From positions 22,010,001-22,074,000 of the forward strand of contig OX597832.1 in assembly GCA_951406725.2 (NCBI GenBank): a stretch of DNA of 64,000 nt. Reading direction: 5' to 3'. This DNA comes from Octopus vulgaris. Its lineage: Eukaryota. Positions 24,623 to 63,333 of the stretch are shown one piece after another. Within the stretch, counting starts at the first letter, position 1. Each line of letters begins with the position of its first letter. The notes under the pieces were generated by a model. The model was given only the letters and a program-made list of their open reading frames with translations. It ran no database searches and had not been told where the DNA came from. A program made the position numbers and the translations under genes.

Positions 24623-24821
24623 AAGTATTCATAAACACCAATTTGGTACTGAAAAAGAATAATTTCATTTCATTTCTCTCTCACGCCCACACGATGCTTC
24701 TGACATGCATATAATATTTATATATGAAGCTAAGATCCCACCAGGGGTTTCAAGAAATGAAACTCTACAGAAATGGCAAAAGAAAAATAAAAAAATTAAA
24801 TTAAAAAAAACTGAAACTTAC

Positions 24822-24977
24822 TTCAAATTCACCGATGAGCCTCCCTAATTTCCCACGTACTCCAGCTTCTTCAAAAACCTCACGCTCCGCAGCTATTGCT
24901 GGTGGCTCCGAGGGTTCAATACCCCCTCCAGGTACAATCCATCGATCTTTATATCTGCTACTCGATACTAGTAAGAT
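24822..24977 (-). CDS. NUDT3: Internal coding exon of a diphosphoinositol polyphosphate phosphohydrolase (DIPP; NUDT3/NUDT4/Aps family Nudix hydrolase)
   Basis: Minus strand reads tcgtctttttcag|ATC TTA CTA...TTT GAA|gtaagt: 156 nt, phase 0/0, no stop. Translation ILLVSSSRYKDRWIVPGGGIEPSEPPAIAAEREVFEEAGVRGKLGRLIGEFE has a perfect Nudix box GX5EX7REVFEEAGV and closely matches the recalled human NUDT3 segment VLLVSSSRHPDRWIVPGGGMEPEEEPSVAAVREVCEEAGVKGTLGRLVGIFE. The symbol denotes the family; an invertebrate gene is probably co-orthologous to NUDT3/4/10/11. Confidence 0.95.
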
Positions 24978-36985: not shown

Positions 36986-39044
36986 GAGTGGAGCCTTCCT
37001 CCATCTCCACCGTCTCTTACTTTTTACCTACACTGTCCTGCACACACACCACACACACAGACACACACACAATACCATTTGTAACAGCAAAACTGGTATA
37101 AAAGTCTGATTAAATTCTGTGTGTGTGTGTGTGTATGTGTGTGTGTATGTATATGTATGTGTGTGTATGTATATGTATGTGTGTGTGTATGTATATGTAT
37201 GTGTGTGTATGTATATGTATGTGTGTGTATGTATATGTATGTGTGTGTATGTGTAGAAGAGAGTGTAGGTATATGTCAGCTTCCAAAATCTCCACCACCA
37301 CCACCACCACCACCACAACCACCACCACCAGCACCACCACCACCACCGCCAGCACCACCGTTTCTGGCACCGCCGCCTCCGCTCCGTCACCACAAAGCAC
37401 TGCATACCTGAACAGTCGTTGATGACGTCAAACATTGTTGAAACATGAAAGTAGCAGAGGTCTGTCGAAGAATATAGGGTAAAATGAATGAAACCTCAGA
37501 TGTGTGTGTGTGTGTGCGTACGTGTTTATATACGTATGCGTTTTTTATTAATAATCAGCAGAAGCTACACAGTGACTCAAGGGCCGTGAGTTTCACACAA
37601 TGACACCACACGAAACTCTCGGCTTTTGAGTCACTCCATAGTGCTGCCACAATTACTGATCAAAAAAAAAAAATAAAATAAAAAATAATAATAATAATAA
37701 TAATTGCCTCAACAAGGACAGATTTTTACTGTTGGTGCTCCAGTATGTCCACAACCTTAGGGCTGAAACAGGTAAAAGAATAAGAGAATACACCCCTCCC
37801 CCACACATACATACATACATACATACATACATAGATGCTGGTGTGGCTGTGTGGTAAGATGTCTGCTTCACAACTACATGGTTCTGGGTTCAATCCCATT
37901 GCGTGGCACCTTGGGCAGGTGTCTTCTGATACAGCCTTGGGCTGACTAAACCCTTGTGAGTGGATTTGTTACACATAGACTGAAAGAATCCCATCAAGTG
38001 TATGTGTGTGTGCATATATATAAATGTATGTATATATATACACACATACATACACACACACACATATATATATGTGTGTGTGTGTGTGAATTAGTCAATT
38101 CCAGTTAGAAGATAGCAACAGAATATTTTACTTCATAACAACAGAAACTGAATTTTATTACAGAAAAATAACTACACACACACACACACACAAATATATG
38201 CGTGGGGGGGGAGTATGTGTGTACTTGTGCTTGTCCCCCATCATTGCTTGGCAACCAGTGGCAGGGTGTTTATGTCCCTACAACTTAACAGTTCGGCAAA
38301 CAATACCAACAGAATGAATCGCAGGCTTATAAAAAAAAAAAATAATAAGTGCTGAGCTTGATTCATTAGACTTAAGTCCTCAAAGGCGGTACCCGCCACC
38401 CAGCATGGTTGCAGTCAGATGAGTGAAATAGGATGGAAACTGAAATAAGCCTGTCATATATATATATATATATGTCTGTGTTTGTCTCCCCAACATCACT
38501 TGACAACAGATGCTGGTGTTTTTACGTCCCCCGGTAACTTAGCGGTTTGGCAAAAGAGACTGATAGGGTTTAACTCTTTTGAAACTATCCAACCTAAGAC
38601 AGCCCCTACTTCAATGATACAAATTTCCTGTTCCAAAGTAATCTAGTAGAGTTCTCGTGCGAGTCCTCAGTTGGAGTCAGTGTCGGTTATGTGATATATG
38701 AGTTCGAGTTACCGTCAAGGTAGGCATTTCAAAGTCATTGTCTTGTGAAGCTATCAGCGATAGCACAATAGACAAGTTAAAGATAATGAGATCCGGAATA
38801 TCGCCACGACATAATAGTGGTGACAAGAATATTACAGTGCTGACAATAACATACAAGTGGACGAGGATCCACTTTATAACGTAATGAATTTAGGAAGGAA
38901 TTAAGCATGAAGGAAGGTAACTTTCTCACCAAAGGGTCCTGTCCTTGTTGCAGTCTCATGGCTTGTGTACCTCAATAGCCCTGAAAACTAAGCTTGCAGA
39001 GCGCAAGCTCTTGGTAGAATTTCCCATGCTAGACAAATCAAGAC

Positions 39045-39380
39045 TTTTGCGGATTCCATTGACAGCGAGGCTCACCAATGGAGAAGTTCTTAAGCAGATA
39101 AGGCTGAAAATGTCGCTAGAAGCTGGGATCACCAAGTGTAGATTGGCATATTTCGGTCATATTATGCGGAGAGAATCCCTGGAGAAGGACATCATGCTCG
39201 GAATGGTCAGTGGCAAGAGAGGAAGAGGCCGACCAAGAACCCGCTGGCTTGACACCATCAGGAGTGATACCGGAATGGACATGGCCAGTCTGAAGGAAGT
39301 GGCCCAGGATAGAACTGACTGGAGGACACTGATCCAACGAGTAACCGAGAGTCGACTTCGACTGAGCGGATAGAGAGAGA
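39045..39380 (+). mobile_element. RTE-clade LINE 3' end (5'-truncated)
   Basis: LLRIPLTARLTNGEVL...LAYFGHIMRRESLEKDIMLGMVSGKRGRGRPRTRWLD...DRTDWR is a typical RTE/BovB-like ORF C-terminus. Confidence 0.9.
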
Positions 39381-59065: not shown

Positions 59066-59639
59066 ATGACAGACATGTACACATCGTTAAGCAATTATAT
59101 TCCGATGGGTACGAAGAGTCGAATAATAAGATAAGTAGGTTAGTTTGCGAAAAGAAGATTATTTCAAAAAGAATTGTTTCCCATTGCTTATCAGATTCTT
59201 CAATATTTTAAAGTGTATGCGCACGTACGCACGGATGCATTTATGCATGCGTGCGTGTGCTCATGCATATACATATATATATAGTAGATGCACATGTGCA
59301 GCACGTGTGCACAAGCGTTCACTTGATGCTCTGTGTGTTAATCCCAGCTAATAAACAACGGAGATTAACTATTTTGTGACTGCGTTTCTAACGAGCTACG
59401 CTGTGTATGCACTTCAATTAATTTAATTATGCAAATTAACCAGAGCAGCGGTGGGAAAGCGGGGGCGGATATAAACAGCTTATTATCACGAAGCGAGATG
59501 AAGGTGACAAACTGGTGGATCTATAAGAATGCTAGAAAGAAATGCTCAGCAGCATTTTGTCTTTCTTTAGCGCCGAGTTCAAATTCCACCAAGGTTGACT
59601 TTGCCTATCGTCCTATCAGGGTGGGAAAGATTTTCTAAC

Positions 59640-60143
59640 TAGAAAGGGTATGGCCTGGTCAGCCTGTAATGACATGCATAAGATCCGGTCATCAAATCTA
59701 GGTAGAGACTTCAAACTTGAAATCTTCAAAGCCACAGTCGAACCAATTCTACTATATGGCTCAGAAACCTGGACGTTATCAAAGAAGCTCGAGAGGCGGT
59801 TAGATGGAACCTACACTCGCCTCCTTATGAGAGCTCAAAATCTCTCGTGGAAGCGTTATCCAACCAAAATGCAAATATATGGGAAACTACCACCTGTGTC
59901 ATCTCTTGTGAAAGGTAGGAGAGTCCAGTTTGCTGGACAATGTTGTAGAGCTGAAAATGAGGCAATTTCTACTCTTCTCCTGTGGAACCCATCCACTCGC
60001 AATACCAGAGGGCGCACACACTCCTATCTCCAAGGATACAGGCATCCAGCAACAGGACCTCCATAATGCTATGATGGACCGTGAAGTCTGGCGTAACATA
60101 GTAAATTCCACTGTCTCGACCACGGTCGAACAATGATTATGAT
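59640..60143 (+). mobile_element. RTE-like LINE 3' end
   Basis: KLEIFKATVEPILLYGSETWTLSKKLERRLDGTYTRLL...RRVQFAGQC; frameshifted near the end; short GAT-type tail. Confidence 0.9.
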
Positions 60144-60499: not shown

Positions 60500-61200
60500 T
60501 TTATATTCCTAGTTCAAATCTGGTTGAGGTCAATTTGAGCTTTCGTCCTTTTTGGATCAATAAAATAATTTATTTCAGTTGTTTACATTCTGAGTTCAAA
60601 TGCGGGTGAGGTGAGCTTGGGTTTTCATTGTTCTTGGGTCAATAAAATAATTTATTTCAGTTGTTTACATTCTGAGTTCAAATCCAGGCTGAGGTGAGCT
60701 TGAGTTTTCATTGTTCTTGGGTCAATAAAATAACTTATTTCTGCTGTTTACATTCTGAGTTCAAATCCAGGCTGAGGTGAGCTTGAGTTTTCATTGTTCT
60801 TGGGTCAATAAAATAACTTATTTCTGCTGTTTACATTCTGAGTTCAAATCCAGGCGGAGGTGAGCTTGAGCTTTCATTGTTCTTGGATCAATAAAATAAC
60901 TTATTTCTGCTGTTTACATTCTGAGTTCAAATCCAGTATGAGGTGAGCTTGAGTTTTCATTGTTCTTGGGTCAATAAAATAACTTATTTCTGCTGTTTAC
61001 ATTCTGAGTTCAAATCCAGGCTGAGGTGAGCTTGAGTTTTCATTGTTCTTGGGTCAATAGAATAATTTATTTCAGTTGTTTACATTCTGAGTTCAAATCC
61101 AGGCTGGGGTGAGCTTGAGCTTTCATTGTTCTTGGGTCAATAGAATAACTTATTTCTGCTGTTTACATTCTGAGTTCAAATCCGGCTGAGGTCAGCTTGA
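60500..61200 (+). repeat. 83-bp minisatellite (~8.5 units) derived from a SINE segment
   Basis: TTCTGAGTTCAAAT recurs every 82-83 bp (60588, 60670, 60753...61168); the unit resembles the start of the ~183-bp SINE unit. Confidence 0.9.
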
Positions 61201-62390: not shown

Positions 62391-62805
62391 GTATATATGT
62401 GTATATGTATGTATATATATATATATATGTATATGTATATATGTGTATATGTGTATATGTATATATGTGTGTATGTATATATGTGTATGTATATATATAT
62501 ATATGTGTATATATACATATATATATATACATACATATACATACATATATATATGTATATATATATATATATATATACATACATATACATACACATACAT
62601 ATACATACACATACATACACATATATATATGTATATATAATAGTTATCGCCATACTAATATGGCATTCTTATAAAAATAAGAATAAAGCTGTCCGCTTAT
62701 TAGCTCCATGAGGCCATCGCCTTAAGTTAGCTATTTGATACACAAACTGTATCCATATAACCTTCGAACAAGGGAGGTCAGTCGCTCCACACTACTTGAC
62801 CGACA

Positions 62806-62847
62806 GCTACAGACGCGTTTCGGGGTATTGCCCCTTTTCAATGTAGC
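62806..62847 (-). ncRNA. Minimal type I hammerhead ribozyme, U3-A8 core variant
   Basis: Minus strand GCUACA-UUGAAAA-GGGG CAAUA CCCC-GAAA-CGCG-UC^UGUAGC: 6-bp helix I, 4-bp helix II, palindromic CGCG loop III, GUC cleavage triplet. Confidence 0.85.
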
Positions 62848-62981
62848 GTGTTCTCTATTAGAGAGACTTAGTAATTTTAATATTTCTATTATTGAAAACA
62901 AGTGGATGTATTCCACCGAAACTTGGTAAATAAAACCTTCGAACAGAGATTGTCAGAAGCGACACCTACTGGTCTGACTAC

Positions 62982-63023
62982 GCTACATTGAAAAGGGACA
63001 ATACCCCGAAACGCGTCTGTAGC
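62982..63023 (+). ncRNA. Minimal type I hammerhead ribozyme, U3-A8 core variant (second, inverted copy)
   Basis: GCUACA-UUGAAAA-GGGA CAAUA CCCC-GAAA-CGCG-UC^UGUAGC; one helix II substitution relative to the minus-strand copy. Confidence 0.8.
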
Positions 63024-63297
63024 TGTCGGTCAAGTAGTGTGGAGCGACTGACCTCCCTTGTTCGAAGGTTATATGGATACAGTTTGTGTATCAAATAGCT
63101 AACTTAAGGCGATGGCCTCATGGAGCTAATAAGCAGACAGTTTTATTCTTATTTTTATAAGAATGCCATATTAGTATGGATAACTTTTTTTTTATAATTT
63201 TTATAAGAATGCCATATTAGTATGGCGATAACTATTATTTTCCGGGAACACTGCCGTGTTCTCTATTGGAGAGACTTAGTAATTTTAATATTTCTAT

Positions 63298-63333
<36 letters not shown>

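Follow-up and report, generated by a model that had tools for sequence, protein, structure and literature searches.

A pair of opposite-strand U3-A8 hammerhead motifs in Octopus vulgaris as one insertion of a likely non-LTR retrozyme family

Two hammerhead motifs with a U3-A8 core lie on opposite strands of an Octopus vulgaris locus, and one of them is sense within the intron of a NUDT3-like gene. The question that this locus raises is whether the two motifs are active ribozymes that have kept their core by compensatory change, as a first-pass annotation had proposed, or whether they owe their presence and their core to something larger. We analyzed the whole stretch of 64,000 nucleotides around them (contig OX597832.1, positions 22,010,001 to 22,074,000; hereafter the window) together with related copies in the 2.8-Gb genome.

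Two motifs in one inverted insertion

Re-reading of the window sequence returned the letters of both motifs exactly as the first-pass annotation gave them, and the predicted cuts (Table 1) and the single mismatch between the copies, a G>A at 62998 in helix II of the plus copy, are likewise correct. Both motifs have the core UUGAAAA, a helix II of four G-C pairs around a 5-nt loop (3 of the 4 pairs remain in the plus copy) followed by GAAA, a CGCG helix-III loop and a UC cut site. The canonical type I core is present (positions 3-9, 12-14, 15.1-16.1, H17 and a Watson-Crick 3-8 pair, here U3-A8), as is the canonical helix layout, with 6 bp in helix I, 4 bp in helix II and a short helix III with a palindromic loop. 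The description "intact-looking" fits the 42-nt core region of both motifs and fails beyond it. A hammerhead scan of the whole window identified these 2 motifs and none besides (20 shuffles gave 1 loose and 0 strict matches), and an Rfam search with the motifs yielded nothing at the gathering score and no hammerhead family at E<=10.

Both motifs sit in the arms of one inverted repeat of 200 nt with 99% identity (62650-62849 and 62980-63179); they are one sequence represented twice and not independent. The repeat is part of a head-to-head structure flanked by (TA)n on both sides (Table 1), which matches many places in the genome at 93-99%, and the list of open reading frames for the window holds no retroelement frame adjoining it. 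The distance between its two arms, 5 over the compared stretch (duplication included), is larger than in most insertions of this kind. The pair of motifs is part of one young insertion of a 362-bp repeat without a protein. The annotated position of the minus copy, sense within the NUDT3-like intron, was confirmed: exon 2 and exon 1 (residues 1-33; L296:5865-5963, minus strand, ~155 kb upstream of exon 2) bracket the insertion on the minus strand and define a first coding intron of ~154.9 kb, and since exon 1 lies ~116 kb past the end of the window, the insertion is intronic.

Table 1. Coordinates of the insertion, its hammerhead motifs and related features (window positions unless a locus or contig is named)
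Feature	Position	Strand	Remark
Whole insertion	62637..63300		362-bp retrozyme-type repeat present as two arms, head to head, each with (TA)n at its end
Inverted 5'-truncated arm	62637..62849	-	213 nt; starts 2 nt before helix I, stops at the fixed short 3' end
Inversion junction	62847..62849		3-bp microhomology
Forward arm	62847..63238	+	nearly one full unit, up to the short 3' end
Long rod-like stem	62930..63074	+	predicted, z -6.85; hammerhead at tip
Internal insertion	63151..63196	+	46 bp, imperfect local duplication; missing from the aligned intact unit
Tail	63239..63300	+	62 nt; runs into the next unit as far as the second fixed 3' end of the family
Type I hammerhead, U3-A8	62806..62847	-	predicted cut 62812/62811; family-typical helices I and II, without 5' bulge and outer stem
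Type I hammerhead, U3-A8	62982..63023	+	predicted cut 63017/63018; loop-closing pair of helix II lost through G>A at 62998
Coding exon 2 of NUDT3/DIPP-like gene	24804..24977	-	residues 34-85
Penelope-like element, examples	L145:244-5500	+	
	G000:C6:133343000-133350000		

Several other features of the window deserve mention. A second hammerhead-like stretch at about 62891-62930 was rejected, as its GAAA is lost in the older subfamilies of the repeat and its helix I is poor; this segment, just past the tail end, is a conserved small hairpin that looks like a degenerate hammerhead in young subfamilies and not in old ones, and could be a promoter element. Positions 60570-61200 hold a tandem array of ~87-bp units, by eye unrelated to the hammerhead repeat, and 38921-39373 and 59599-60066 hold decayed C-terminal fragments, which we take to resemble the reverse transcriptase of RTE-type LINEs.

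The repeat family and selection on its hammerhead

At least 564 hammerheads of this family are present in the genome: a genome-wide pattern search returned 84 exact copies of the 42-nt motif and 480 more with N7 other than A, against 0 in the controls. The unit is non-coding and 361-365 bp long (362 typical), with 39 distinct full units in 143 loci. Head-to-tail arrays reach 3.5 units at 362-bp spacing, and arms on both strands occur in 92 of the 143 loci. The family is dispersed, with matches on contigs C1-C30 and 5'-truncated arms with fixed 3' ends. Folding of the unit revealed a self-paired and stable structure (z -7.57 versus 100 shuffles), in which p is >0.94 for helices I and II and 0 for helix III in monomers. 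Two fully intact motifs one unit apart were found in 8 of 127 loci. A natural dimer of the intact unit lies at G000:C27:19410112-19410835 (plus strand, L016). These features suggest that the family is likely an animal non-LTR retrozyme and, judged from its sequence, that it likely encodes a working self-cutting RNA. The unit was also found in four sequencing runs from other organisms, with a compensated outer-stem pair and no core change listed. Contigs of four runs contain the unit plus a head-to-tail joint; we do not take these joints as evidence of expression, because tandem DNA gives them too. None of the data sets listed as containing the unit is recorded as RNA, 14 of them being RNA by presumption only, and we read this neither for nor against expression. 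Runs X19 and X20, from two other organisms, each yielded the unit in one low-depth contig of 392 nt, which could reflect a relative, diet or contamination.

The first-pass annotation regarded the change from C3-G8 to U3-A8 as covariation and hence as a sign of selection for activity. Its premise is sound, in that C3-G8 is a Watson-Crick pair of the core and U3-A8 keeps it, as described in the relevant parts of PMC3884650 and PMC3088659. The window pair itself shows no covariation, because both motifs belong to one inverted insertion. In the family alignment, which comprises the 146 of 163 de-duplicated matches that span the motif, 139 of 146 rows have U3-A8 and none has C3-G8; U3-A8 is therefore a fixed trait, and the 3-8 pair never covaries within the family. 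A candidate C3-G8 sister family with an identical helix I amounted to 1 match without helix II and was discarded.

Evidence for selection emerges at the level of the family, where core and helices are kept. Five subfamilies can be distinguished, 76-94% alike over 143 columns around the motif, the older relatives having been reached by whole-unit searches. Among the five subfamily majorities, 0 of 12 core positions differ versus 43 of 131 other columns, and the sole varying core position is N7, which is free (A, C, C, U and U by subfamily). This five-way test is partly circular, because subfamilies B, C and some rows of D were found by a pattern that fixes the core; U3-A8 occurs in 92 of the 98 rows found by whole-unit search, and subfamilies A and E alone give roughly p 0.03 (calculated by hand). 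Base pairing is kept in 92.2% of alignment cells, against 29-54% in slid controls, and both sides have changed in 10 of 17 pairs across the family, among them three pairs of helix I, the outer stem and pair 10.1-11.1, counts that are not independent events in copies sharing ancestry. The helix-III loop reads CGCG, CUAG or CCGG across subfamilies and is always self-complementary, which fits dimer cleavage as described for animal type I hammerheads in the relevant sections of PMC4209133. A 3-nt bulge, a single U and A/U/A positions of loop 2 are conserved as well, all putative tertiary-contact nucleotides. The putative contact would resemble that of the schistosome motif. Taken at this level, and on sequence comparison, the family is apparently under selection for the hammerhead fold; the part of the original argument that was drawn from the pair does not stand.

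Some loci depart from the common pattern. In L165 (G000:C14:29543324) the hammerhead core has been cleanly deleted between short direct repeats beside the cut site. L130:1-292 (+) and L081:1584-1643 (+) represent a further subfamily, whose helix-III palindrome CAUG is that of a Penelope-like element described below, so that mixed dimers are conceivable.

Insertion ends, breakpoints and a Penelope-like partner

Analysis of the ends, with 2 duplicated loci omitted from the tally, revealed that 3' ends (n=250) are concentrated at two points 62 nt apart, the short end with 109 and the tail end with 106, and that (TA)n comes next after 95 of the 109 short ends and 98 of the 106 tail ends. Two opposite arms of one insertion never come from different subfamilies, and 58 of 75 such pairs (77%) differ by <=2 changes, as do 29% of 22,672 pairs between loci (one comparison within the family used 88 of 104 distinct segments, leaving out those with indels or truncations). 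Such likeness would be expected had both arms been copied from a single template or from close relatives of it.

Copying of cleaved RNA should often produce arms that start at the cut, and we searched the 5' breakpoints for such a footprint. Eight of 108 lie within 2 nt of the predicted cut, where 3 are expected (p 0.01, uncorrected), and 6 of 21 fall on its exact base (p 0.006; 24 minus 2 small deletions and 1 duplicate). We reject this footprint as evidence of cleavage, for other hot spots match or exceed it (19 of 108 at +38 to +45 from the cut, and 8 at +99 to +103), and in a control window a single base accounts for 7 of 25 truncations, counted by eye in 67 matches, which is just as high a peak. 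The strongest hot spot, +38 to +45, lies at the base of the rod, in a short palindrome, where the reverse transcriptase may stall or microhomology may act.

The genome contains an intact young Penelope-like element in many near-identical copies (L142-L149; examples in Table 1). It has two overlapping frames, of 479 aa and 781 aa, the latter with reverse transcriptase and GIY-YIG domains (the reverse transcriptase domain scores just below the Pfam cut-off), as well as direct terminal repeats, (TA)n ends, a tail and an inverted arm. Within its terminal repeat, ~100 nt before the 3' end of the element, lies a minimal hammerhead whose core reads UUGAUAA and whose palindrome is CAUG, and this U3-A8 core is identical to that of the older subfamilies of the retrozyme. 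Among the GIY-YIG candidates of the genome (6,136, many of them identical, of which 150 were scored), a U3-A8 minimal hammerhead was found downstream of 18 of 30 loci. Comparison of the unit with the repeat of the main Penelope family detected no DNA homology above shuffles, and neither did comparison with the ends of 14 Penelope loci, save for one marginal score (L151). Because no DNA homology was found, it is the insertion footprint and the core that point to this partner; on these grounds a Penelope-like enzyme likely wrote the repeat into the (TA)n tract.

We assign a probability of roughly 0.78 to the reading that the motifs of the window belong to a young insertion of a likely non-LTR retrozyme, whose hammerhead likely cleaves as a dimer and whose copies are written by Penelope into (TA)n, and that the two window copies are probably inactive. 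According to this model, tandem copies would be transcribed, the palindromic helix-III loop would let neighbouring hammerheads pair and cleave after C17, and the resulting monomers would circularise. The Penelope GIY-YIG endonuclease would nick both strands of a (TA)n tract, the Penelope reverse transcriptase would copy the RNA from two fixed starts, often beyond one unit, and the joining of two cDNAs at a microhomology would produce head-to-head arms. Once in a host pre-mRNA, the sense hammerhead is predicted to pair with the earlier antisense arm across 200 bp. More tentatively, U3-A8 may be the shared mark of a host-parasite pair, made up of an active Penelope-like element with a minimal hammerhead and a retrozyme lineage with a canonical one, in which the retrozyme either descends from the terminal repeat of that element, regaining full tertiary contacts, or is recognised through its core by the Penelope protein, and the two-armed, two-ended insertions would be the record of one RNA circle copied from both target strands; we regard this extension as possible, if rather doubtful.

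Alternative explanations and known systems

One alternative is that the minus hammerhead works as a ribozyme and cleaves the NUDT3-like pre-mRNA within the first intron. It is sense there, its 42 nt agree with the commonest subfamily sequence, and folding of the copy alone gives p 0.83-0.95 for helices I and II. Against this, the copy is young and one among hundreds, it begins 2 nt before helix I and so is without the 5' bulge and the outer stem, both retained in the family, helix III requires a partner, and a neighbouring motif on the same strand is present for neither window copy. Moreover, the antisense arm is transcribed 130 nt earlier in the host pre-mRNA, and in folded read-through RNA of either strand a 200-bp duplex takes over and the probability of the hammerhead helices drops to 0. 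We therefore consider cleavage of the host transcript highly improbable. The plus copy has its own defect, the G>A at 62998, which occurs in 1 of 36 subfamily-A rows and removes the loop-closing pair of helix II; if the unit had its own promoter, this copy could be transcribed without the antisense arm, in which case helix I and three helix-II pairs are predicted to form. The suggestion that these are the best active candidates was not borne out: folding predictions indicate that both copies are probably inactive passengers, and the loci with two intact motifs one unit apart are better candidates.

The other two alternatives concern the family as a whole. The repeat could be the pLTR of a yet-unfound autonomous Penelope-like element and the window copies its truncated remnants, given that Penelope-like elements are known to have tails, truncated copies in inverted orientation, and hammerheads on opposite strands at distances of 100-700 bp, as parts of PMC4209133 and bioRxiv 10.1101/2021.04.23.441226 describe, and that the 150 scored GIY-YIG candidates are a fraction of the total. 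However, the units follow each other head to tail without coding sequence between them, the family hammerhead is canonical and not minimal, and the unit serves as terminal repeat in 0 of 42 Penelope loci (part of the Penelope families of the genome), the one locus of the 42 that holds a family member having it inserted separately, on the opposite strand, in the (TA)n beside the element. We judge this origin unlikely. Alternatively, the family hammerhead may no longer be catalytic, its fold persisting as a signal that the mobilising protein uses for binding or packaging; many genomic arms pass through uncut hammerheads, the cut site leaves no distinct footprint in the breakpoints, and Penelope minimal hammerheads are reported to cleave poorly in vitro in the section of PMC4209133 concerned. 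Yet the pattern at every catalytic position, at the unconstrained N7 and in the loop palindrome is the one that dimer catalysis predicts, and U3-A8 cores are active in vitro according to the corresponding part of PMC3088659, so that loss of catalysis seems to us improbable too. The retrozyme reading, with a dimer-cleaving hammerhead, remains the one that we prefer.

The U3-A8 core itself is rare but already published: natural examples and in-vitro activity are stated in the pertinent part of PMC3088659, and that of PMC4209133 counts about 1,300 motifs of this type in the Penelope-like elements of Schistosoma. As far as its main text describes them, the animal non-LTR retrozymes of Cervera & de la Pena (2020, PMC7229834) share with the Octopus family non-coding tandem units of 150-450 bp (350-390 bp in mussel) with one canonical type I hammerhead each, a GC content <50%, a self-paired fold and a weak helix III with a palindromic loop. 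The Octopus family differs from them in having U3-A8 fixed throughout and in its insertions, most of which are short and consist of two arms in inverted orientation, and whose two fixed ends lie in (TA)n; the words "inverted" and "U3-A8" each have 0 occurrences in that main text. With the Penelope-like element hammerheads treated in the relevant sections of Cervera & De la Pena (2014, PMC4209133) it shares type I topology, the palindromic loop III, the dimer model, the U3-A8 variant and opposite-strand pairs 100-700 bp apart, but those motifs are minimal (long helix II, short helix I) and located in pLTRs, whereas the Octopus motif is canonical, with a 6-bp helix I, a 4-bp helix II and a conserved loop and bulge, in a unit without a reading frame.

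The endonuclease-bearing Penelope-like elements described in the corresponding part of bioRxiv 10.1101/2021.04.23.441226 have in common with the Octopus insertions 5' truncation, partial tandems, an adjoining inverted copy, a tail at one end and a bias towards microsatellites; their tails are 30-40 bp, compared with 62 nt in Octopus, where no protein is encoded. Retrozymes have also been presented as non-autonomous Penelope derivatives (bioRxiv 10.64898/2026.07.22.740005), and co-occurrence with Penelope-like elements is a feature common to both; in the part of that work concerned the units match pLTR sequence, while the Octopus unit has no match in the families compared and shares the core variant only. 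A search of literature listings found no U3-A8 retrozyme and no cephalopod retrozyme, a point on which the supplement of PMC7229834 may bear. Based on these sequence comparisons, we classify the Octopus repeat as a likely new family variant of animal non-LTR retrozymes with a canonical hammerhead fixed at U3-A8.

Taken alone, the window pair is unremarkable: the repeat is common, this copy of it has decayed, and its core variant is already in the literature. As a whole, the family forms a natural series of five subfamilies in which U3-A8 stays constant while helices and dimer palindrome change. The mobilisation of retrozyme circles by Penelope enzymes is a step that has long been proposed, and the combination of a retrozyme and an intact young Penelope-like element with a shared core in one genome would allow a direct test of it.
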